A stretch of 63,999 nucleotides of DNA, filler included, from Sphacelaria rigidula (taxonomy: Eukaryota), in assembly GCA_964200075.2 (NCBI GenBank). It is 3 parts of 3 records of this genome, joined end to end, with 100 filler letters (N's around TTAATTAATTAA, not from the genome) between each part and the next. Parts side by side here need not be neighbours in the genome. Positions count along the whole stretch, not along the records: positions 43,728 to 63,999 come from CAXNAA020000547.1; 2 more parts are not named here. One strand, given 5' to 3'. Shown here piece by piece: positions 21,768 through 61,757 of this stretch; within the stretch, counting starts at the first letter, position 1; each line of letters starts with the position of its first letter. Under the pieces are notes generated by a model that had not been told where the DNA came from, did not search any database, and saw nothing but the letters and a program-made list of their open reading frames with translations. A program made the translations under genes and the position numbers.

Positions 21768-21867
21768 NNNNNNNNNNNNNNNNNNNNNNNNNNNNNNNNN
21801 NNNNNNNNNNNTTAATTAATTAANNNNNNNNNNNNNNNNNNNNNNNNNNNNNNNNNNNNNNNNNNNN
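21768..21867. other. Artificial scaffold spacer N44-TTAATTAATTAA-N44
   Basis: Exactly 100 bp; the 12-mer gives stop codons in all six frames; identical spacer at 43628. Confidence 0.97.
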
Positions 21868-43487: not shown

Positions 43488-43627
43488 GAGTAGTGGGCAG
43501 TGTAACTATTTAGGGGTGTTTTGGGGTTTTCCTCGCGTACTACTCTTCGATAGAACTCGAAATTGCTAGCGTCGGTAGATTTTGGGACAACAAAGCAGAT
43601 CAACCTCGAAAAACAGTGCCCAAGTCA
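43488..43627 (+). mobile_element. Partial copy of the Tc1/mariner-type MITE (same family as 55318-55868), cut by the gap
   Basis: Near-identical to 55318-55457. Confidence 0.8.
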
Positions 43628-43727
43628 NNNNNNNNNNNNNNNNNNNNNNNNNNNNNNNNNNNNNNNNNNNNTTAATTAATTAANNNNNNNNNNNNNNNNN
43701 NNNNNNNNNNNNNNNNNNNNNNNNNNN
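43628..43727. other. Artificial scaffold spacer N44-TTAATTAATTAA-N44
   Basis: Same as 21768-21867. Confidence 0.97.
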
Positions 43728-44010
43728 CGAGACGGAGCAAAGGGGGGGGGGGGGATGAAACGCAACCATGTCCCTCGCCACGGCAACATAACCTACCGCA
43801 GAGCGCAACGTTCTCATGCTTATCCCTCGGGGGCAACACCACACATGCTCAATAGCGACCTCACTGGGTGCCATGCGTGTAACTATCCAGATGCGCTCAT
43901 CCAGCTCTTTCCTCCTCTTTTGCTTGTCCGTTCTCCCACCAGAATTTCGGAGAATGATTCCGACAATAAGGAGTCACCTCTCCTGCTCTTTTTTTTTCTC
44001 CTGCTCTTTT

Positions 44011-47000
44011 TCACATCATCCCAGCTAGACTCCTAAGCTCGTCGGCGTTCTTAGTGGCGAAGTCCCTGTTTGGCAGAGGAAAAAGACAAAATGAAAAAAG
44101 GGACAGCAACGCACCAAAGTACTTGAGGCCAATGATTGAGCGTAGGACGAAAAGAATGCCACCGGGTGTGGAAACGGCTTTCACCCGTACTATCCTTTGC
44201 GCGAAATACATGCTTGAGACATTGCTTGGGTGCCAAGTGATGAATTACGGCCATACGGAGTGAGTGACCTGTACCACCGAATCGCACTTCACGAGGGGAA
44301 TCACAAGATCGCAACAAAATGCCTGCTAGTGATGGCCGCGATAGCCCTCTCCCCTCCCCCTCCCCAAACAAGCCCCGAAACTGCCGGGAAGAAAACGGCC
44401 AAACAGCGCATGAATGTTGGTTCCAGGCTGCACGGAGCGCCTCAAATGGACGACACTGGCGGAAACAATCCCAATGGTGGGAGTTCCCAGCTTCTCGATT
44501 TGCTGGGCTTTTGTCATTTTGATTTACATCTAGGTTTTGCCACCTCAAACGAGCCACACTTTGAGTGAGGGCTCTTGCGTCTTCACTAATGTGTATCAGG
44601 ATGAAGAGAACCATACGTCTGTTGCAACAGGCGCAATAGTCGATACTGTACGCAGTACACTTTTTGACAGTGTATTCTATTGCCATTATCCAGGGTGTGC
44701 AGAGAACACAAATAGTCGAACAACACCAACCAAACGATTGGAATGCTGGTTGACCCTGCTCGAGCACTCATGTCAACGGCTCTGAGTATATCGGGGGCTG
44801 ACTAACCCCACCTGCCGAAAACGTCTATACTAAAGAACGACACATTCACTGTCTTCCGTGTAGATGGATGCCAAATGGGACTCGGGGGGCTGACAGAAAC
44901 TCTGTATCTACCCATAACAAATAGACTTAGCCGACACTAGAATTCGTTGCGGGACTCTTCAGGTGCGGTGTAATGATCAGTGCTCTCGCCTGAGCATTCC
45001 CTCAACTTAATGCGCGGCCACAGACACAGCGGGGTGCATGCAGGTGACCTATAGGGAAACGTCAGAGCATAAGGTGGACCTCTCTGTCAAGTACGGTGGT
45101 GGCCTCCCTCATTTACATCACTAAACTTCATCCAGAGGCTGTCCCTACCCTTGAGCATATTGACGACGAAACGGAGGCGTCCCCAGTAAAGGAAGATATT
45201 TTATGCAGGGACACCTTACATATTTAGATGCACCGACTGTACATGCCTGACCGCAGGAATCGCTTCTACGGCAAACATTCTTCATGGTTTCACGACCAGC
45301 CAATGTCTTCCTATTCTTACACACGGGGAATTGCGACACGCGCCATGTGCACGGCGACGGCCGTTTCACAGCCCCGCATCCCTGTATCTCGTCATATGCG
45401 TCGACTCCACCGTAAAACGCCTACATTCCGATCCTCCCTCCGCCCTGCCTCCCCGGTGCTCATCCAACTGACGTCCATCTACCGACCTACGAGCTTACCC
45501 GGCCAAGCACTGACCGAACATGCGGCAACACAGAACATAATACGCCAAACAGCAATAAAACAGAAAAAAATCCTTGAAATTGAGCGTAAGCCCAGCAGCA
45601 CGATAAAAAAAAAAGCACACTGGATGGCGCACCTGGGCAGCACCATCTCCGACATAACCTTATCCCGAAGTCTCTGAGCGGCGTGTCCTTCCATGCTGAA
45701 CACGGCCATTCGGAGCCTGCGAAGGTAGTCCTTACCGATATCTTTACCCTGGGGTGGAGTGTCGACGCGCAATTGTTCGAGAGCGTGAGAAGTGAGTAGT
45801 TGAGCTTACTCTCCGTTTCCTACCGTGTTCATAAACATCTACTCGTGACCCTCCCGATGAACTCACACCTATGTCAACATCCCGGCAGACAGACATGCAC
45901 ACCACGCCCCTCTTCTCTGCCACCCGCGTGCGGCGAAACACAGACCGCCGCACGCACCTTTAATTTTCTCTGTTGAACACCACAGCCAACGGTCAATACA
46001 ACCAACACAGCCCGCAGGGCCAGACACTTACATACACAGTCGAAACAGTTGATCCGACAAACGACGCCAATAATACACTTACGGTACCCACACCATGCCC
46101 CCGCTTGCCTCACCTGGCTGTCGTAAAGCTCCTTCTCGATGGCGGTGCAACGTTCTACGGCCGCAGTCGCAGACCCCAAAACGGTCGTCAACATCCCAAG
46201 AGCCCTGCGGCGCGGCTGCAAGGTTGAAACCGGCACAGTAGAGGAGAGAAGAAAAAAAAATGGGCGAGATAGGGGTTGGTTGGATGGAATAAGAGGGGTG
46301 TACGGGCATGACGCTGTCGGGCGACCCGTTATCACGGGATGTGTATTGTATGATGAAACTAAATACGTATCATCAGCATCCATAGCAGTGGAATAAAGGA
46401 CAAGGTACTCCCGCCCCACCCACGGATCCGGTTCGCCCCCTTTCTCTTTTTTGGTTGAATATCAAAAGGGGGGTGTGACGCCGTCATGAAGGTTTACCGG
46501 CTCCTTTGCTGATGAGAGAATTTGATTCTTCCCGAGGCCATGTCGGCATATGACGTGGGCTACTGTTCACGGCCTTGGTATCGTAGCATCGACGTAAAAC
46601 ACCCCCCCAAAATGTTGTCGGGAGCGAAACGGGTGTCGAAGCTATACGTGACAGCTTTCTCAAATCTCGATGGACTCGGCCGCTGTTTTCACAAAAAGTT
46701 GAGCAAAAACGAAGGAGCATGCACTTCTTTAAAAAACTTGGGTGCAAAGTCACTTGTTGCCAAAACACGTGTCCTGGACAAGCTACGAGCTCCTCCCCCC
46801 CCTCCCCCTCATTCCACCTCTCACCTCCTCCAACACAACCGCAGGTGGCTTCTCCACCACGACACCACTGTCCTTCTTTCCCCCTCCCGTTCCTGCCGCC
46901 TCCTCATCGGGGCCGCTCCCGGACCCCGTCCGCCCCTTGCGAGACCCCCCTCCCCCTGCCCCGACACTCTGAGGCTCGTCCTCGGTCCTTCCGCCTCCGC

Positions 47001-50000
47001 CGTACCGACCTCCCACGTCCTCTCGGCTCTTACGGTCTCGTCCCCCACTTCTAGCACCACCACTCCCGCCGCCACCCCCCATCGACGCCCTGGGAGGTCG
47101 AGGGCTATCCCGCCCGCTCCCTGTCTTGGACGAACTATTATCGGACTTTACTTTGGCGGAAGACGATGCGGCGGCTGTTGCTTCGGAGACCGTTCGAGAG
47201 GAGACCGAGGACCCTTCCCCGCCGCCGCCGGTGGGAGTAGCGGGAGCGGACGAGCCGCCCATTGTCGCCGAGGAAGAAGCCGAAGGCGTGGCCGATGCCC
47301 CCTTGTTACCGATGGCCTCTATCCAGCGGCTGCGGAGAGCGGAGGCGGCGCTCGCCAAATCTGCGTCGTTGTGAGAAACTTTTGATCCGCCGCTGTAGTA
47401 TTTGCGCACGGATGACACTGCCTTGCCACAGCCCGACTGTCGCAGCAGCTCCTCTGAAGGCTCCAGTTCCCCCAGCTGCACACGATGACATACATGAAGT
47501 TGGGGTGTTCAGCGCCGGTGACGGCAGCGTTGTGTGTGAGGGAACGACTTGTAACTTAAAAGTGTGCGTTGGTGAGTGCGAAATTCACGCGTGCGTTGTT
47601 CAGAGTGGGTGCGAAGTGGGCTGCAGAATCAAACAAGAGCCACCTTGGTGCCGCCGAAGCGAAATGAAGGCGCGCACAGCCAAAACATGCAAAGATTGGA
47701 GCATGAATTACTCCATTTCTCACGGATGAAGAAAGGTTGTATACATCGAGTCAGAAGCCATTGTCTCCCCATCCTTCACCCTCGTTTCTGCTGTTTAGTC
47801 TGGTATTTGTTTCTTAACGTTGATTGGTGGGCTATGGTTTCAGCAGCGCAACTATTACACGAGCCCGCTTGCCCGTGCATGGATATCTTGCTTACCCGTC
47901 GCAAGGCCTCGAGCACGTCCTCCTTGTTGAACCGAGACTCCGCGCTAGCCTTCACAAGCCTTTGGGTTAGCTTACGCGCGGTCTGAACGCGTCCTTCTAT
48001 TCCACCCGCAACCGCTGCTGCTCCTCCCCCTCCCCCGCCGGCAACTGACGGTGGCGGTGCCTTCACCGATGCCGCCGCCTTGCTAGATTCTGCGGGCTTA
48101 TTTTTGACATCCTTGGTCGTGGCTGCAGCGGCGGCCGTGGCGGTAGTGGGCTGCTGCTCTTCTTGCATACGCGCGCGTGCTTGCTTCCATACAGGCTCTG
48201 ACGAGCTCTTCATCTGCGACGTGAGTGGGGGGGGTCGAACGGACTGGTGACGCAAAAGGATGCACATTAAGGCACGGCTTCTGATTTGACCAGTGCTGCA
48301 GAAGCAGCGGAGTATTTCGCAGGCGTGTTGAAGGGGTCAACCTGACGAGAGGCGGGGGCGGGTGCAGAACATTTTACTAGCCCTAGTCCAGTCCCTTGCA
48401 GTGCCCCGTAACAACAAACACACAATGCGAAGAAACAGCACTCTAACCGAACAACAGTCGTCACGAAAGACAAGGCAACTCAGCGAAGGCAACGGAACGA
48501 AATAAAACGACCCCCAACAACGACGATCAACAACACAATTTCTGCCAACACACCTGATACACAATACACACAGAGGGAGAAAAACAAACCTCGGATAACC
48601 GTTGCTTCCGATCATCCTCCTCCCTTTGCTTCTCCTCCCGCTTCCCCGCTTTCGGCTTCTTCTCTTTTCCTTGCCCTTCCGCCTTCTCCTTGTCTCGGGC
48701 TCGCTTAGCACCGCCACCGCCGCCTCCACCTCCCACCCCATTCTTCCCAGCTGTGCCGGCAGCACGGCCCTCCTCCTTGCTTGTAATCCACGCTTCATCC
48801 CTCCCGATTTCCAGCGGAGGCAGAGTGGCCACGTAGGCCTTGATGGACGCCATTGCTCTCGCCTTAGCCTCTCCGGGAGCCATAGGCCTAGTCTCCTCTT
48901 GTACGCCGCCGCCACTGTCGCTGCCACTGTCCTCAGCTCGCGCGGCAACAGAGGAAGACGAGGACACACGCGATCGCTTGCTGGGCTTCTTTTCCTCACC
49001 GCCGCTCTCCGCGTTGCTGTCGTCATTATTATTTGACGTGGATGACGCCTTACCGCCGCGGCCGCGGCCGCGGCCCCGACCACTACCGGAGCTGGCGCGG
49101 CGGCCGCGAGGGCGGCCTCTCTTCCGACCACCGCCTTTCTTCTCTTTTGCAAAGCTGTCTTCTAGCATTTTGTCGTCCTAAATGAAATGCGGCATGTCGA
49201 AGCCGAAGGAAACGGCATCAGGATTCGAGGACAAAATACCAGGCGCGAGGGGTAGATATCGGGTGGGTAACAGTTACGTTTATTCTTACGTGAGTTCTCG
49301 AGAGACGCATGTGCTTGCCTTCTTCGGAGCGTCGACAAAGCATCCCAGCTCAATCGGAACGTCAAGAAAAAAGTGTATGGGGGCCCTGCTTCACACCCCT
49401 GCAAACGACCACACCTACGCACCCATGTTGAGCGATGACACCACATAAGCAACATCCTCCGCCCCGCACTGTCTCCCTTTTTTCAACTCAACCTACCTCA
49501 TCATCCACATCATCCGGATCCGCATCCGCAACATATTCCTCTTCATCATCGTCATCACCGTCCCCGCCCCCATCATCCTCGCTCTCCTCCTCGCTTTCCT
49601 CGGCCGCTTCCCCCCCCGCCCTTCCCTCTGTGTCCCCCTCCCCCACTCCCCCTCCGCCCCCCAACTCCTCATCTTCCATCGCATCCTCCTTACTCTCTTC
49701 CACTGCAGGTAGCTCTAGCTCGTACTCCGCTCCCGATGACGGAGCAGAAGGTGCGTCTTGCTCCAGCTCTTTGACGGGAGCCTTGCGTGGCCTACCGCGG
49801 CCCCTTTTTTGAGACGGCGCGTTGGACGCCCCGGCGCCACTGGCAGTTGATGATGATGGGGATGCCGCCGAGGATGCGGCCGCCGTGGGGGATTTTTGCT
49901 TGGACGGCGTTTTTGCCGGCTTCTTCTTTTCCTTCGTGCTCGCCCCAAAACGGCCGACTTGGCGCATTTCTGCCAGCCGCTCGGACCTGTACGAGTTTTT

Positions 50001-53000
50001 TTTCGTTTTTTTGTGTAAACATGGTTAGGGGTAGGGCGTCCGTGTAGTGTTTTTAGTTACGTGCTTCTTGATATGCAAGGGGTTAATTCTCGAAAGGTGG
50101 ACATTTCTCGGAAGGGCCGGAGGAAATATATATCACACATGTACCACTACCAACGGGGGAGGGGGAGAAGGGACAGTTTGGACCTCTGCTTGGTGTGACT
50201 CTGCTGTGCATGGAGGTGTGCTTGTCCTCTGCGCGGCTGAGTCAGCTTCGCCATCATCACCGTTTTTGTGCCGCCTCAGTTCAATACGGGAGTTGCTCAT
50301 CTCACGAACGTGCTACAAGTTTGATAGATATGTTCTACGTACCATCAAACATCGCCCGCCACCGCCTTGCAGACTGCGGTCGAGGCAGGCACGCATACCT
50401 CAGATGTCGGGAAACATCAGCACAGCGAACGAGTTTTGTACATGTCTGATATGCTTAGCAGCATGCACGGTATAAGCCAAAGAAAGACAACGGGCCCAAC
50501 AAAAAATTCTCGACAATTTTGACGAAAAAGGTTACCGTGTACTCCGGAGTCTATTAGTTTTCGATTCCTGCGCCATTTGACAGCCGCATTTACTTCGGAA
50601 AAAACGGAAAAGCACGCGCGCGGGGGGTGGAGGGGTCGCTTCGGATGATACTTCTGCTGGTTTAGCCCGTCGGTACACGAGGGAGTCCACCTGCACACAC
50701 GCGTCTTGAGCGATGGACAGACTTGTCGGAATTAAAACCCCTTGTCGACGGTTGAAGTTCGTGCAGATAGATCATTATCGACATGGCTTTCGACTCTACA
50801 CATGTCATAGCCGACCAAATACTGGGATGAGGAGGGGGCGGGGACACACACGAAGGACTACCGGCTTCGACGAATGCTTACTTTGGGACCTGGGATGCCT
50901 CCAGGGCAACTTGGGCGTCCTCCTTTAGCATCTCCTTCTTCTTAGAAGTATTGCATCCCTTTAGGTGCGTGGGCAAGTTCGCGATGTCAAACGGCGTCAG
51001 GTTCCTGCCAAATTCACGCCGAACAGCAGACAACGGACAGCAAGGACAGAGGGCAGCCCAAGCAGTCAGCTCATGAGTCCTTCGACTGATTGGTCATTTT
51101 TTGAAGTGGTAGAGGTGCGTACATGGGGGGAAGTAGCTGTCGGTGGCAAAGGAAGTGGCGCGCCGAAGATGGGACTCAGAGGGTTTGTCACAATTTTATG
51201 TTTGTGTTGCAGCGTTCAAAGAGACGAATTTACGTCCAATCACGGAGAGAGAAAACAGTTGTGAAAAACGCCAAAAACCGCGAAAATGGCGATCTAGGTC
51301 CACACGTTGACTTCAACGAGATCGCCATTTTTTGCAGATGAGACGAGCCACTGTTTCAAGATTGTAGGTAGACCGTGGTGGCTGCTCCTTTTCTCTGACG
51401 GGGAGCATAGGGTCATTTGTTGAATCGACTTCAACTTCACTTGGAAAAAGTATGCATGGTCCAGATAGACTACCCTCGCGGCCTAGGGGTTAACTTCCTT
51501 CAGGCAGCGCTTTCGGGCGTCGTGCTTTCCTTTCTCGAAAACACAAGAACATATCGCATTCGGAACTTCAAGAATGTTCTAGAGACAAAAGAAAGATATG
51601 GGTCGTGATACTCATGTCAGTAACAAGTATGACGAAACATCATGATGCGCAGGGGATCGCTGGCGGCATGGATATAAACACCTCCCTTTTCCGCTTCTTT
51701 GAAATAGCAACGCACACACGGTTTCTAACAAATAACTGAGGAAACTCTGACGTAAATAACTACCACTGCATACCCGCACCGAAGCAACACGTACATACGC
51801 GAAACCTGAGTTGTGTCGTATTAATAGCAGTACATGAATGTCAAGGGTGAAATATACGATAACTCGTGAAACTAACTCACTTCGTGGAATTTCATTTAAA
51901 TTGTATTGAATATTGAATATTGAATATTGAATAAACACGGTAAACACGCATACTTTTCAAAGACGAAATTGGAAACAAAAACTTACTTGTAAGGGATGGC
52001 AGCGAACGAACGCCACTTATCATAGAACTTGATGAGGTGGCTTCTGCCGAGGGAAGCGTAAGCGATTCTCGAAGCCTCGCGCGAGTTCTTGTCTTTTCCC
52101 AGGAATCGGGGGTCCCACACGATACCCGGCCACGGAGCGGAGCGCGGGCTCTTGGCCCATACAACCTGCGGCGGCAACGTATACGCCATCATCCAAACGT
52201 GACCACGCGTGTTTGTAGTTGGACGGGCTTGTCGGAAGGGAGGGTTACGTCATACACAACTGCAGCGTAGTGTATCGGTTGATCTCTACAGTGATTTCTC
52301 TTGCTATGCCGTAGTGGTCTATTTCTTTGCACTACAACTGTTCGAGCAAAAATCGGCACTTTTCGTTTTACAGCGTGTATTGCACGTACACATGTTACTA
52401 GAGCCTCTTGCACAAAAATATATTAAATCATAACTTCATGAACTTCCTCCATCAGACTGTGAAAACCTAGCTCACTGCACTACTATCGTACACTGCCTAC
52501 CCCGTATCCTGTGTCGGGAGGAGTTCTACCGCAAGGTCTATTATGACCTCATTATCCCTCCTTATGGCATTGTCACTCGAAAACCTGGTTCATGTCACTA
52601 TCCTCAGATGTACCCTTTGTCCTATAAAAAGAGCAGGGTCGTGAACGCGGGGAATGTCAGTGTAAAATATGAATACATTATATGTACCGCACATGAACAT
52701 AATGTGTGTGGTATATTAGGAGGAACCTCGAGGGAGCGAAAACATAGGGGACAAGGAGTGGAATGGCTCGTGTTTACGGTGAAAAGGACGTGTTCTCCCG
52801 CTCCGCAGGACCTGGGATCGACTGGATCATGCATAATACAGTCTTATGAATGCGACATCCAAGATCTATGACTACACTTCTCCCTCTCACGACATACAAC
52901 TCTGTACAGGAGAAAATCATGTAGCGAAGGGTAGGAGGTGGGAAGTTTCATCATTCACCACAAAGGCAAATGGCTACAGGTACGAACGTTGTACCATATG

Positions 53001-54144
53001 GGTGTTCGCAGTATGTACTGTTTTCCTCTAGTGGAACATCCAACACATGAATTCTGTACTGTATGTACCCTGGTTGGGTCCCTCCGCTTGGTTGTTACCC
53101 CGTAAATGGATGCTATTGTGTAGCACCAGCGAGCAGCACAGAGAGCCTGCTCCGAACAAAACATGCGTTGTAGGGTACTAATGTGCTGTGTCGCACGGTG
53201 CTGCACCACTGTGCTTCCACGGCTGTTTTACTGTCCCACATACAGTACTTTTAAAAAATGGGCACTCAAAGATAAAAGGAAGCCGCCGAAAAAGCGCAAG
53301 GCCCAACTGCCTGAACCGACACATGCATTATTGCTGTTGGGGATCCCGTAGGATGTGCGTACTTGGGCACCCAGGAATACAGTACAACCGCACTATCCCA
53401 CAAGGGCTCCAACCCTTCGCACGAAACAGATGAAACAAATCCCCAAGGTTCTTCGCTCACATTTCCGAACTGCGCCTTAGTCTGAGAGGGCAAATAATGC
53501 ACGTTGTCCTCCTCGGACCAATCGTCCGACTCGCGCCCTTGCCCATCGTCCTCCTCTTCATCCTCCTGCCCAGCCCCAGTATACCCATATGTACCGTCGC
53601 CACCGCCGCCGCCGCTCGATGATGAAGGCGTAGCGACTGAACCTCGCGGCGACACGGACGTCGAAGCCTTTGGTGTTGGAGGAAGTGAGGCAGCACTAGG
53701 GCTGGTGGCTCCTTCCAAAGGTTTCTTGCGTGGTCTACCTCGTCCGCGCGGGGCAGGAGTCGGCGGTGCCCGGGAGGAAACCGAGGTCGAGGCGATGTTG
53801 TCTTTGTTGTTACTATTGTCGTCTTCGGCAACGTGATTGTTCTCCAACGGCCCACCATTTTCTGTAGAATTTTCAGCATCACCGGGAATAGTGGGGGTAG
53901 GGCTGTTCACGCCGCCTGCCCCGCTCGCCGAGTCTTGCTGGAGCTGATGATGCCGGTCATGAGGACGCTCGTTCATCCCGTTTTGGCCTCCCGCGGAACC
54001 CTCCTCGTGACGGTCATTACTGTTATTGTTACCATCATTGCTTCTGTCGCCATGCTCTGTATTTGCCGCGTCTTGTTCAAAACTCGCCCTTCCGTGCCTA
54101 CTCGGACCTCGCCTGGTGGGATTCGACCCTCTATCTCTTGCCAT
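44011..54144 (-). CDS. AT-hook/PWWP/TFIIS N-terminal/TFIIS central-domain protein, about 1101 aa (exons 54144-53461, 52165-51987, 51004-50882, 49986-49497, 49177-48590, 48213-47896, 47475-46825, 46215-46114, 45748-45633, 44065-44011)
   Basis: PWWP: FGN|VVWAKSPRSAPWPGIV...HLIKFYD. Three RGRP AT-hooks. TFIIS-N/LW: DVLEALRR|LGELEPSEELLRQSGCGKAVSSVRK...ASALRSRW. TFIIS-M: RRRALGML...AIEKELY...YLRRLRMAVFSM...LRDKVMSEMVLPRDFATKNADEL. All junctions are GT-AG and sum to 3306 nt in frame. Confidence 0.82.
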
Positions 54145-54392
54145 GGCTTTGCGCTGATTTGTACCTGGCTATTTCCCTGCTGTGCGAGAGGACCGTGTTT
54201 TACGCCTGTACAGAAGAGAGGACGAGGTCATAATTTATTTCAAGGCTTTAAGGTTGGTCGTACTCCAATAAAGATGCAAAAGGTGCTGCTCTCAAGCTGC
54301 TCGACTTGTGCTCCACCTTGGCTACACTGCTATCTATCGTCCAGGAAGCACAAGCTGGGGCAGGCGAGTAACGGCGTACACAAGCAAGCATT
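54145..54392. promoter_or_regulatory. Probable bidirectional promoter between the PWWP gene and cytochrome b5
   Basis: Head-to-head ATGs 248 bp apart. Confidence 0.55.
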
Positions 54393-57300
54393 ATGACGGA
54401 GAAAGAGGTTTCGATGACGGAGGTGGCCACCCACAATAGCAAGGAAAGTGTATGGCTGGTCATAAAAGACATGAACGATGGCGGTGAGTGAGCAGTAGGC
54501 AGTTTTCCCTGCAAGCTGTCGTAGCCGTAGGGACGTTGCTCAGCGTCGTGAAGTGTACTGTTGTCCGTACTCACCGTGCTGTCCGTTGATGCAATCTGGC
54601 CTGTTGTGCTGTGGGCTCCATGGCCACACGGTGCTGTTTGTATCCTAACATACCGAGAATCTTTTTGTATTATCCGATTGGGCCGTAGTTGACTTCCTTT
54701 GTTCTGCCTCCTCTGACAAAGGGGCTATGTATAATGCTGGACGGCACGTAGACATACAGAGAGTCTACCGCATAGCAGTGGACACTCATTTCCCGAAGTC
54801 GTCCCTCGTCCCTTCTCGGGCCAAGAGGTGATAGGAGAGTTTCGATATACTCCATAAAAACGCACATATAGTACAGTAGTATATGGCTGCCGTGGTTGCT
54901 GGCGTACTTCACACGTAGCTCTTGTCGCCAGTGGATTTGCTGTTATCTTGTTTCAGTATCGATCCATCTGGTACATCGTATGCGGTATGGTGTGTTTGTG
55001 TTCCGAGTGTACCGTACGGTTGTCGGTGGTTTGGGTACGCCAGAAACCGGGTATGATCATGGTTGCTGCTTGTATCCTGTGCTTCGGAACTTGTACATCC
55101 TCAAGCCGTCGTTCGTACTGTACGGTGATGTACAGTCCGCACTAAGGCGCTGTGTAGTTGTACTGTACTCTACTGTTCGTACTGAGCTGTTTCTTTCCTT
55201 TCGGAAGCTGATCGGCAGAGTTAACGTTAGAGTTTATAAGATGCTGAAGTATGAAGTATCTACTGAACTGACTTGCCCACTCCACGTTTATCATACGTAC
55301 GAGAGTGGTCCTAAATACAGTAGGGGGCGGTCTAACTATTTAGGGGTGTTTTGGGATTTTCCTCGCGTACTACTCTTCGATAGAGGTCGAAATTGCTAGC
55401 GTCGGTAGATTTTGGTACAACACAGCAGATCATCCTCGAAAAACAGTGCCCAAGTCAGTGTATGTTGGTGTTATCGGCCTAAACGAGGAAATACCCCGTT
55501 CATCAGGAGGGTGTTATTGACCGTGAAACACAGTTTTTCGCCCCCAGTGCAATGAGTAGGCGAAAATTAAAAAAAAATAAAGTTTACATTTCTTGACAAA
55601 TATGATCAGGACGGGCTCGATCGACCGAAAATACAAAAAGGTAAGAATCTGGGCTGAAACGTGGCAGAACCCCCGATGACCGGTCAGCCCGTAAGTCACT
55701 CAATATTGAGTACAGGTCATTTTTTCTTCTTCGAATGTGGAGCGGATACAAATATCTTCAGATCCCCGATGTGATCAGCGATGGAAAGCGAAAAAAGCCC
55801 AAGAAAATCGCCAATTTCGAAAAAACCACAAACTGCCACAAAATGAATAGTTAGACCGCCCACTACTGTACCGTAGCCCCTCTGAACCAGGCCACTACTT
55901 TCAGTGCTTTACATTGCAATATATTATTCGCTCTCAAGAGCTACCATAGAATATGGTGTTTTATCACCCGTGCGTATTGTCATGAACAAGGGTTCGACTA
56001 AGTCTCGTGTGGGGGAGAGGGTTAGACCCACTTTTATGGCAACGAATCTCGATTTTTTTGGGACCCCAATTTTGGAAAAATCGGGGGGATTCACATTCGT
56101 AGAGCTCGGAAATGGTACCAGTTATAACTGGCTATCATCATTATAATGGTGATAATAGCAATGGTTGTATGTAAAGTTTGGATAATGGTTTCAAACCATG
56201 ATTACCGATGCCGGCTTTTTAAGCCGTTACCGGCTACGTATGCTACATACAGCCCTTGAAAATCGGCCCAAACTGTATTTTCTAGCTCTAGTGAAGCTCA
56301 ATCGCGTGAAAACGTGCCTCCGGCACGGCGCCTCCAGCGCGGCCCTCTCCGCCGGGGGGGCTGTTTGGCCCGTGGCTGCGCTGCTCGATGATGAACCATT
56401 ATGTACCATTTAACTGGTTAGTGAGTGCGCTACGCGTATCCATTCAACTGGTTAATGGTTGGACAGACCATTTCCGAGCTCTACAAATTCGTGGATTCAA
56501 AATCGGGTGACCGTTTTCATGGCACAGACAGAACAGTATCACAGATTTGTGAAACGGTTCCCCACACAGACGGTCATTTTCTGCATGACTGTGGTACTGC
56601 GTACTCGTGCATGAAGCCGAAGAGCAGGTAGGCGGTAAACAATCCTTTGAGTACAGTGTCGTACCTTGGTACCCTAGGGTAATACAGTGCAGGATACTGC
56701 ATCAGTACTGTACTTGATGATGCCGTGTGGTGGTACATGATGGGACAGCCAGTATTGCGAGAACAGAGAACAAACAGTGCGCGAGCAGATCTCAGTAGCG
56801 CAGTGCCGCACATCACCCCTCAAGTTCAGCGACAACAGCTAGGAGAGTACAGCAGCGTCCGTTATCGTGATACATATGGCAGCGCAGCACAGCATAAAAT
56901 ACTACCATCGCCGCAGGGTACGGCGTCAGCACTTACTATCCGCTTGTCAAACCCCGTGCGAAGTTGCTTCAGCAGCTGGGGCGGGCAGTAGGCACGCCCT
57001 GTGCTGTCACGAGACTGTATTCTGCTGCCGTTGCAAAAATATTAAACGCCTCGTACTCTAGCATTGTACGTCAATGTACGTACGTCACCCCAAAAAAATC
57101 GGGGGCAGTCACGTGCTACAAGATGGGAGATTACCGCTCTGAGATCGTGACTCCCCGATTTTTTCGCCCCCGATCTGGTCCAAATCCGTGTCGATGAGAT
57201 GCGTTTCCCGACTTTTCCCCCCCCGATGCTCGAAAAAACCGAGATTCATGCCTGCCATAAAACGTCTTACTTAAGTCACGGCAGAGTCTGGGCGAGAACT

Positions 57301-60300: not shown

Positions 60301-61757
60301 TGAGGCGCCGGAGTCCGCACCTCCGTCACCTCGACGTCTTTCTGCTCTGCCAGAGTAGTATAGTGCTCACTGCTGTGCTGTCGGTGCACTGTGTTCTGTG
60401 CGCTGCGCACCGTACAGTTGTGGATTGGACTGTTCGGCGTGTGACGTTGTGGCGGGAGCCGCTGTTTGATGTGAAAAATGACACATTTATTTTTTTCATC
60501 AGTTTCACATGAACATAGAGTAGCTCACACACAGAAGCATAGCCGGTATCAGACCCGCACAAATTGAAAAAAGAAGAAATTACGAACACAAACGCCACGA
60601 CTCCACGAACCACGCCACATGGAGCACCCGTGGGCAGGTACTAGCTGCTGAACATGGGGTGCATAATCCTGTTGGAGTACTATATGCGCCAAGTTATGCG
60701 TAAAACTTAGCTTTTATGCCTTTGTTATTCTGAAATCTCCAAGAACATATGTTTTGAAAAAAACGCATATGCTTATGCACGAAACCCCGTTTTATGCGAA
60801 ATTGTATGTGCGCATAAGACGCAAAAACCTAGCTGTCGAAAGGCCACCAGTATTGGGATTGCATCGCCGTATTCCTTTATACGACACTCCTGTACTGTAC
60901 AGTACCCACGACCTATACCCAGCTTGGTGCAGGTACATGTTACTGATGTGCAGTCAGTTTACACGGCATCCTACACTGCTGTTGAAAACCTGCCGCCCCA
61001 ACAGTCGCTGACACAGCTCGCAGATACGGATGGGAAAGCAGTGTGCTTGTTAAATCGGCAAAGGCCACGCTGGAGTCCAGCCGCAAAGTCCTTTACTTCC
61101 AAAATAATGAACAGTAGTAGTCCGCGCTACCAGTAAGCCACTGTTTCCCCTCGACGCATGTCCTATCCCAAAAGGTCGTGTTCATCTGTCATATTTCAAT
61201 CAGCATTCCTGAGGTATTATCGCCCCCCAACACGCTTGGACGTCGTGGACATCTATCTGATGACAGCACACAGCAGCATATATCCGATACATGTATTCAA
61301 AGATTCAAGATGCAATCGTTTATACCGTCATCCTGCCTCCTGTTTCCCCCGCGCAATCTAAGGCGTGTTTTTTATTGGTATTTTTTTCAAAATTTATTCA
61401 CCTTTTTGCTTCGCGTGGAATGTTGTACTCTGTTGACGATTTGATATCCAGATACACCCAAGGTTTATGACGTGACGGAGTACCTTGACGATCATCCGGG
61501 CGGGGCGGAAGTTATGCTGGAGGTGGCAGGGCAGGACGCAACGAGAATGTTTGAAGACATCGGACACTCGTCGGACGCGCGAACGGAGATGAAAAAGTAC
61601 GAGATAGGGCTTCTCAAGGTGATGGCAGATGATGGTTGCACTCCACATACGCGCCAATTGTGTTGTAGCTCTGTGCTCTCGACTTATGATCGTAATTACA
61701 ACACGAATAGTAATAGTAGTGATGATAACAAGAGCGATTGTCATAGTAATAATATTA

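Follow-up and report, generated by a model that had tools for sequence, protein, structure and literature searches.

The 63,999-nucleotide stretch of Sphacelaria rigidula DNA analysed in this study (GCA_964200075.2; hereafter the window) consists of three contigs strung together, and the beginning of its third contig (43728-63999; CAXNAA020000547.1) was found to contain a ten-exon gene, encoded by the minus strand. The locus is a real, expressed gene of brown-alga type, in which one spliced mRNA gives rise to a protein of 1101 amino acids (aa). The encoded protein carries a PWWP domain, three AT-hooks, acidic tracts and a TFIIS N-terminal domain (TND, domain I of TFIIS), its last ~90 aa are weakly but significantly similar in sequence to TFIIS domain II, and the zinc ribbon (domain III) is absent. 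An earlier note made from the sequence had described the locus as a LEDGF-like chromatin reader fused to a TFIIS that lacks its catalytic domain.

The spliced coding sequence (CDS) starts with an ATG at 54144, which has an in-frame stop nine codons upstream, and ends with a TGA stop at 44011-44013, the protein terminating in ..NADELRSLAGMM*. The stretch is present in eight public runs, from which three RNA-type runs of one study (X1-X3) and one DNA run (X5) were compared; X1-X4 are only guessed to be RNA (labelled 'RNA?'); ~0.3 of the sampled words are present in them, which is near the exon share. Nine splice joints were observed in the contigs of all three RNA-type runs and were absent from the DNA run X5, and all of them read CT..AC on the plus strand, that is GT..AG on the minus strand. 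On these GT..AG sites the introns were placed at 44066-45632, 45749-46113, 46216-46824, 47476-47895, 48214-48589, 49178-49496, 49987-50881, 51005-51986 and 52166-53460. The protein translated from the spliced RNA contigs is identical to the 1101-aa model which the earlier note had stitched from the DNA, and the last three exons (8 to 10) were found joined in spliced contigs of all three RNA-type runs. The parts of the gene are given below, where P0001 is a fragment from Scytosiphon, P0002 a fragment from Hapterophycus and P0007 the Ascophyllum nodosum protein CAN0072008.1.

Exon 1, 53461 to 54177, minus strand: aa 1-228, comprising a disordered N-terminal stretch, AT-hook 1 (53719-53748) and, from 53502 on, strand 1 of the PWWP region; based on RNA contig pieces and joints, splice sites and translation, with the transcript seen from 54177 and the N-terminus and hook 1 kept in P0002.
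Exon 2, 51987 to 52165, minus strand: aa 229-287, the PWWP core (..APWPGIVWDP..), matched by Pfam PF00855 and by profile to the BRPF3, BRD1 and BRPF1 PWWP structures.
Exon 3, 50882 to 51004, minus strand: aa 288-328, the helical C-terminal part of the PWWP, supported by joints and by alignment with P0001, P0002 and the BRPF PWWP helices.
Exon 4, 49497 to 49986, minus strand: aa 329-492, with AT-hook 2 (49776-49808) and an acidic tract, both flanking joints being present in RNA contigs.
Exon 5, 48590 to 49177, minus strand: aa 493-688, with AT-hook 3 (49100-49132), RG repeats and a conserved 39-aa motif (48776-48892).
Exon 6, 47896 to 48213, minus strand: aa 689-794, with the first TND helices from 47994, as judged from the alignment with P0005-P0007 and from an AlphaFold2 (AF2) model of an orthologue TND.
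Exon 7, 46825 to 47475, minus strand: aa 795-1011, the rest of the TND (47302-47475; Pfam PF08711) followed by a Gly/Ser/Arg-rich linker.
Exon 8, 46114 to 46215, minus strand: aa 1012-1045, proposed to form helices 1 and 2 of the TFIIS domain-II-like region and present in the spliced contigs of all three RNA-type runs.
Exon 9, 45633 to 45748, minus strand: aa 1046-1083, proposed to form helices 3 (with a basic Y-L-R-R-L-R stretch) and 4 of the domain-II-like region.
Exon 10, coding part, 44011 to 44065, minus strand: aa 1084-1101 and the TGA (44011-44013), where the protein ends as the domain-II-like region closes.
3' untranslated region (UTR), 43728 to 44010, minus strand: continuous with exon 10 to the contig end, in pieces 43797-44064 (X1, X3) and 43728-44064 (X2).

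Two RNA contigs cover the transcript. The first extends from exon 1 as far as exon 4, the second begins 88 nt before the end of exon 4 and continues into the 3' UTR, and ~100 nt in the middle of exon 4 (49585-49685, Gly/Glu-rich) are left uncovered by the RNA contig pieces listed. This break, with no RNA contig extending over the whole CDS, and the public models of the relatives, each of which holds either an N-terminal half (P0001, P0002) or a C-terminal half (P0007), would agree with two genes, one for the PWWP and AT-hooks and a separate one for the TND/TFIIS-like part, abutting within exon 4. However, exon 4 is a single open exon of 163 codons with in-frame splices at both ends, which joins the reader half to the TFIIS-like half and is conserved in P0001, P0002 and P0007; its uncovered part is a low-complexity GGN/GAR tract, where assemblers break; and the models of P0002 and P0007 have AT-hook 2 and the conserved stretch after it in common. 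Since the exon is open, its splices are in frame and the models of the relatives overlap across it, two separate transcripts are very unlikely, and the two-gene explanation is given hardly any weight. The TFIIS-like exons, which the earlier note had considered as possibly belonging to another transcript, are spliced to the reader exons through exon 4.

Relatives of the protein were searched with the TND half against 1.84 billion representatives, and 25 matches were obtained at E<=0.001, 11 of which are orthologue fragments with 62-70% identity. The named relatives all come from brown algae (Scytosiphon, Hapterophycus, Ascophyllum and Laminaria; at least four genera), and the family spans several orders. 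The other 14 matches were set aside as chance similarities caused by short repeated matches; among the eight of them scanned with Pfam, seven were SRCR-repeat proteins and one gave a BMC match, the other six being left unscanned. With the 66-aa TND query of this search, SRCR-repeat proteins reached E-values as low as 1e-13 because many short repeated matches were added up, a pitfall of short queries. Two metagenome scans, with a C-terminal and a TND profile, gave no relative, and the homologue search with the exon-7 open reading frame (ORF), set to longer lengths, gave none among 8000 scored candidates, a search that was probably crowded by low-complexity words. P0007 aligns to aa ~330-1101 of the Sphacelaria protein, with 280 identical residues in 612 aligned positions. 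All public models of relatives that were found are partial or short of an exon, P0001 and P0002 representing the N-terminal half and P0007 the C-terminal half; the P0007 model lacks the PWWP half as well as the equivalent of the 34-aa exon 8. Skipping of this 102-nt exon keeps the reading frame, and the gap in P0007 may be either an annotation miss or a real isoform. In the disordered middle of the protein, a 39-aa island at aa 588-626 (48776-48892; ..GEAKARA..LPP..GRDE.WI..) is kept in P0007 and may be a binding motif.

The chromatin-binding half of the protein could be established from motif statistics and profile matches. The AT-hooks, with RGRP cores and basic flanks, are located at aa 133-142, 389-399 and 508-518; three RGRP cores were observed against 0.058 expected from the composition, and three or more were obtained in none of 20000 shuffles. 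Hooks 1 and 2 are conserved in the Hapterophycus fragment and hooks 2 and 3 in the Ascophyllum protein. Acidic tracts are present at aa 433-494. The PWWP domain was recognised by Pfam PF00855 in the exon-2 ORF (E 2.9e-6, 28.1 bits against a cut-off of 25.6) and more strongly in P0002 (58.1 bits), and its exon-2 core is 59% identical to P0001. The hooks, the acidic tracts and the PWWP domain had all been noticed in the earlier note, as had the TND described below, and each of them is borne out by these results.

The solved PWWP domains nearest to that of the brown-algal protein are those of BRPF3, BRD1 and BRPF1 (E 6e-4 to 0.015) and not those of HDGF type. BRPF-family PWWP domains are H3K36me3 readers. 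In comparison to them, the Trp of 'PWP' and the F/Y of 'FYD' are retained, whereas the Tyr of the BRPF 'GYP' (GYPSYP stretch), which we take to be an aromatic-cage residue, aligns to Ser in the Sphacelaria protein and to Asn or Ser in its brown-algal relatives. Judged from this alignment, reading of H3K36me by the brown-algal PWWP appears doubtful.

The TND was assigned by Pfam to PF08711 (Med26/TFIIS_N), with 22.9 bits against a cut-off of 20.6, and with 28.3 bits in the orthologue P0007. An AF2 model of the TND of the Laminaria fragment consists of five helices, with a predicted local distance difference test (pLDDT) score of ~80 in the domain. When this model was used in Foldseek, the top match was mouse TFIIS domain I (1wjt, E 1.8e-3, 28% identity), followed by the TNDs of Elongin-A and human TFIIS (25%) and then by a T. 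brucei LW domain bound to Leo1; the integrase-binding domains (IBDs) of LEDGF and HRP2 stood lower in the list, with 13-21% identity (13-15% for the LEDGF IBD), and no match in this search fell below E 0.001. The integrase-binding-domain type (Pfam LEDGF family) was not assigned to the TND, for which Pfam gives Med26/TFIIS_N only. From sequence and model, the domain is of TFIIS/Elongin-A type. For this reason the term 'LEDGF-like' of the earlier note describes the layout of PWWP, AT-hooks and TND but does not extend to family membership, the identity of the modelled orthologue being 25-28% to the TFIIS and Elongin-A domains against 13-15% to the LEDGF IBD.

The C-terminus, taken for a TFIIS central domain in the earlier note, was compared with domain II through viral proteins. 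A set of 120 giant-virus TFIIS genes was collected from viral contigs by motif pattern; the Pfam TFIIS zinc ribbon was present in ten of the ten that were scanned, and a weak TFIIS_M match (17.7-29 bits) in seven of them. The domain-II profile, made from the pre-ribbon region of 70 giant-virus TFIIS sequences, scored 9.3 bits with the stitched C-terminus (P 6e-5 for a single target) and aligned aa 1051-1095 in register. This score was reached by none of 5000 shuffles (maximum 5.2), the reversed sequence gave -1.0, and among all 101-aa windows of the protein the C-terminus scored highest, the runner-up having 2.2 bits. Further, hhalign found 82 collinear columns (P 0.0015) and placed exon 8 on the first helices of the viral TFIIS domain II. 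In the ESM Atlas, the named clusters nearest to the last 61 aa of P0007 were three with PF07500 (0.85, 0.84 and 0.84), sharing 194, 185 and 177 features with this C-terminus, and all of the ten best matches with a family belong to the PF07500 family or clan. Exon 8 alone gave nothing usable in the ESM Atlas, the last 56 aa of P0007, when modelled with AF2, resembled generic helices only, and P0002 had no match at E<=0.01 in a phmmer search of the PDB. Conservation of this part is high, exon 9 being 79% identical to P0007 against 46% for the protein overall. The viral profile, the hhalign alignment, the Atlas clusters and the position after a TFIIS-type TND together make it likely that the last ~90 aa are homologous to TFIIS domain II.

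The protein ends where the linker and zinc ribbon of TFIIS would start. The earlier note had reported neither a zinc ribbon nor an acidic hairpin, and this is now confirmed for the transcript as well as for the six frames of the window. In all three RNA-type runs the contigs with exon 10 extend past the in-frame TGA by 214 nt or more of 3' UTR, and no splice joint follows the TGA in any of them; the X2 contig reaches the contig end (283 nt) and carries 9 more letters beyond 43728. A regular-expression scan of the six frames of the window detected no ribbon or acidic-hairpin motif, and a ribbon hidden Markov model of 104 viral sequences detected none among 2649 six-frame pieces of the 64-kb window (best E-value 0.16). 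Moreover, the Ascophyllum orthologue, located on a 245-kb contig, ends at the homologous residue. It might be argued that the real protein is a full PWWP-TFIIS whose ribbon exon was lost in the assembly gap or belongs to a minor isoform. The contigs are joined (44 N + TTAATTAATTAA + 44 N) at 21768-21867 and 43628-43727, and adjacency across the joins is not established since the window is three contigs strung together; the stop codon lies only 283 bp from the contig end at the second join, which is a caveat bearing on the absence of the ribbon. PWWP-TFIIS proteins with domain III do exist elsewhere, and rare variants are dropped by contigs. This explanation is nevertheless largely refuted by the jointless read-through of the TGA in three of three RNA-type runs, by the same end residue in Ascophyllum and by the lack of any ribbon-like piece within the window, and it is considered very improbable. 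The absence of domain III is real and conserved and is not an effect of the gap, as the transcript passes through the stop, no ribbon occurs in the window and the orthologue has the same end; a downstream ribbon exon, as envisaged in the earlier note, is neither used in the transcript nor present in the window.

Based on these features, we propose with moderate confidence that the protein is a nuclear, non-catalytic brown-algal TFIIS paralogue which also serves as a chromatin tether. Its PWWP domain and AT-hooks would hold it on nucleosomal, AT-rich DNA and would also contact histone tails. Like other TNDs, that of this protein may recognise short disordered motifs in elongation factors, for example PAF1C/LEO1, IWS1 and SPT6; the TFIIS TND is described as binding IWS1, LEO1 and PAF1 motifs, and TNDs in general as binding disordered IWS1, LEO1, PAF1 and SPT6 motifs (PMC9987994). 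The domain-II-like bundle is expected to dock at the jaw/funnel site of RNA polymerase II (Pol II) used by TFIIS, where the contact between TND and PAF1C may supply extra docking. By analogy with Bye1 and PHF3, we infer binding to Pol II and competition with TFIIS. The Bye1 TLD is reported to bind the RPB1 jaw, as TFIIS domain II does, and to give no cleavage stimulation because it lacks domain III, and PHF3 to displace TFIIS from Pol II through its TLD but to need SPOC to dock (PMC8526623). Lacking domain III, the brown-algal protein would likewise not stimulate transcript cleavage. As TFIIS would be excluded while the protein is bound, elongating Pol II would be coupled to the chromatin state, and backtrack rescue would be modulated rather than performed.

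Several observations weigh against this interpretation. Pfam TFIIS_M was unmatched on exon 8, on exon 9 and on P0007, whose model lacks the exon-8 equivalent, and phmmer and hmmsearch against the PDB with exon 8, exon 9, the last 56 aa of P0007 and a two-row profile gave no match at E<=10. The hhalign probability was just 16.8%, and the Atlas scores are below 0.9, in the 'lead only' range of the tool. The central domain of the earlier note is thus upheld as a weak, significant similarity of the stitched C-terminus and not as a Pfam or PDB match of the single exons or of P0007. Moreover, docking in this protein would, by analogy with PHF3, need help from another protein part, and the aromatic cage of the PWWP looks incomplete from the alignment. 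The whole CDS is spanned by no single RNA contig, and all of the RNA evidence comes from the one study.

The protein could instead be a LEDGF/HRP-like scaffold only, its PWWP domain, AT-hooks and TND tethering elongation or chromatin factors to nucleosomes. In that case its C-terminal helices would make no contact with Pol II, being either a helical extension peculiar to the lineage or the degenerate remains of a domain II. The layout of PWWP, AT-hooks and TND resembles that of LEDGF and HRP2, which are described as pairing a PWWP with a TND (PMC9987994), and TFIIS_M is not called by standard tools. On the other hand, the C-terminus is among the best-conserved parts between orders (exon 9 in the comparison with Ascophyllum), matches the TFIIS domain-II profile in the right register beyond 5000 shuffles, and comes after a TFIIS-type TND as in TFIIS itself. 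The scaffold explanation is possible but rather unlikely. A more elaborate proposal, which we put forward only as a speculation of low probability, is that one protein merges a LEDGF-type nucleosome tether with a Bye1/PHF3-type occupant of the TFIIS site. Its PWWP with the atypical cage would then recognise some mark different from H3K36me3, and the PAF1C-Pol II elongation complex would be clamped by the TND together with domain II. The access of TFIIS, and with it backtrack rescue, would in this way be gated according to chromatin state, and the gene would be either a third origin of a PWWP-TFIIS fusion or a ribbon-less descendant of the PWWP-TFIIS of the red-algal endosymbiont.

Apart from this gene, the window has shown several other features. 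On the opposite strand, ~210 bp upstream of the transcript start, an ATG-led open frame at ~54390-54483 (plus strand) ends at a GT donor, and the RNA depth over it is 3-10 times that over the gene, with a loose end at 54483. A cytochrome b5 exon is located 7 kb away at 61445-61654 (plus strand; Pfam Cyt-b5, E 9.5e-19, model positions 21-73), and its ORF then enters a poly-Tyr/poly-Val microsatellite. From its sequence, the 54390-54483 frame looks like the missing start of this cytochrome b5 domain, which would form a head-to-head neighbour. The minus strand of the region 797-21066 contains a run of seven or more closely similar ORFs of exon size, which code for C2 domains (..SDPYAVV..VQLWDEDLG..), Pfam C2 being matched on two of them (E 1e-11); these may belong either to a multi-C2 protein or to a tandem gene array. 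The depth of the DNA run rises from a background of 68 to ~86000 at 44616-44700 (intron 9) and ~11000 at 51248-51623 (intron 2), with many loose ends, and these two segments are high-copy dispersed repeats inside introns. A 139-bp direct repeat of 93.5% identity, containing an open frame, occurs at 43489-43627 (end of the second contig) and at 55319-55457 (upstream of the gene), and is probably a dispersed element that breaks assemblies. No repeats were found within 43728-56000, and Rfam and tRNA scans of the window detected none of their features.

The closest parallels to the brown-algal protein are found in trypanosomes. TFIIS2-1 of T. brucei is described as having an N-terminal PWWP and TFIIS domains I-III, and its paralogue TFIIS2-2 as having a PWWP with domain III absent (T. 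brucei) or mutated (T. cruzi, L. major), so that it 'cannot function as canonical TFIIS' (PMC2610381). TbTFIIS2-2 is reported to be nuclear and to pull down PAF1C and Pol II subunits (PMC8559703), and according to a review the TFIIS2-2 PWWP binds methylated histone peptides (PMC8638923). Kinetoplastid TFIIS2-2 thus has in common with the brown-algal protein a PWWP, a TFIIS-type TND and the absence of domain III, as well as a putative domain II, which is weakly supported in the alga; domains I and II are stated in PMC2610381 for TFIIS2-1 and assumed for TFIIS2-2. On the other hand, the trypanosome TFIIS2 proteins belong to a different supergroup, and AT-hooks and ~600 aa of acidic/basic disordered linkers, both present in the brown-algal protein, are not described for them in the portions of these sources used here; moreover, the brown-algal PWWP lies ~215 aa from the N-terminus. 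A second parallel is provided by CMT501C of Cyanidioschyzon merolae, reported in 2008 as a PWWP fused to a putative TFIIS and probably an independent fusion (PMC2610381). It is also a PWWP-TFIIS in a photosynthetic eukaryote; however, it has the zinc ribbon which the brown-algal protein lacks.

In comparison to canonical TFIIS (Dst1/TCEA), the brown-algal protein likewise has domain I (TND) followed by a linker and then by the domain-II-like region, whereas it is without the interdomain linker preceding the ribbon, the zinc ribbon and the acidic hairpin, and has ~750 extra N-terminal aa with the PWWP and AT-hooks. LEDGF has AT-hooks and charged regions. It is, however, without TFIIS domain II, and the brown-algal PWWP is nearest to BRPF type and not to HDGF type, with one cage position non-aromatic. 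LEDGF/p75 (PSIP1) and HRP2 (HDGFL2) also combine a PWWP with a five-helix TND, which is described as reading disordered motifs of elongation factors (PMC9987994). Bye1, PHF3, DIDO and SPOCD1, like the protein studied here, join a histone reader to a TFIIS domain-II-like module without domain III; their TLD is reported to bind the RPB1 jaw, and PHF3 to compete with TFIIS (PMC8526623; PMC4100922; review PMC12139180). They use PHD and SPOC and are without a TND, whereas the brown-algal protein has a PWWP as its reader, and Pfam scans of all its exon ORFs at E<=1 detected no PHD or SPOC.

The earlier note had not recognised the combination from characterised proteins, and the view that it is unknown among them is not supported, as TFIIS2-2 is described with a PWWP and without domain III and a red alga with a PWWP-TFIIS (PMC2610381). 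The word PWWP is absent from the main text of a 2025 review on the TFIIS superfamily (PMC12139180), and, judged by title or abstract, none of the papers listed for brown-alga PWWP or for Ectocarpus TFIIS deals with this protein. The combination is not unprecedented, its layout having already been described in trypanosomes. What is new here is the brown-algal lineage, the three AT-hooks with long charged linkers, which form a LEDGF-like tether, and the PWWP with an atypical cage.

A histone reader placed beside a Pol II-docking TFIIS part that is unable to cut RNA characterises an emerging group of regulators which swap with TFIIS on elongating polymerase, the known examples being Bye1, PHF3, DIDO and TbTFIIS2-2. 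The public gene models of the brown-algal family are fragmentary, and the full-length Sphacelaria protein offers a candidate link from histone marks to elongation control in brown algae, which Ectocarpus genetics could test. If conserved in brown algae, a version of this kind would extend the solution, whether by separate origin or by retention, to one more major eukaryotic lineage, where it would come with a different reader and a LEDGF-style tether of PWWP, AT-hooks and TND.

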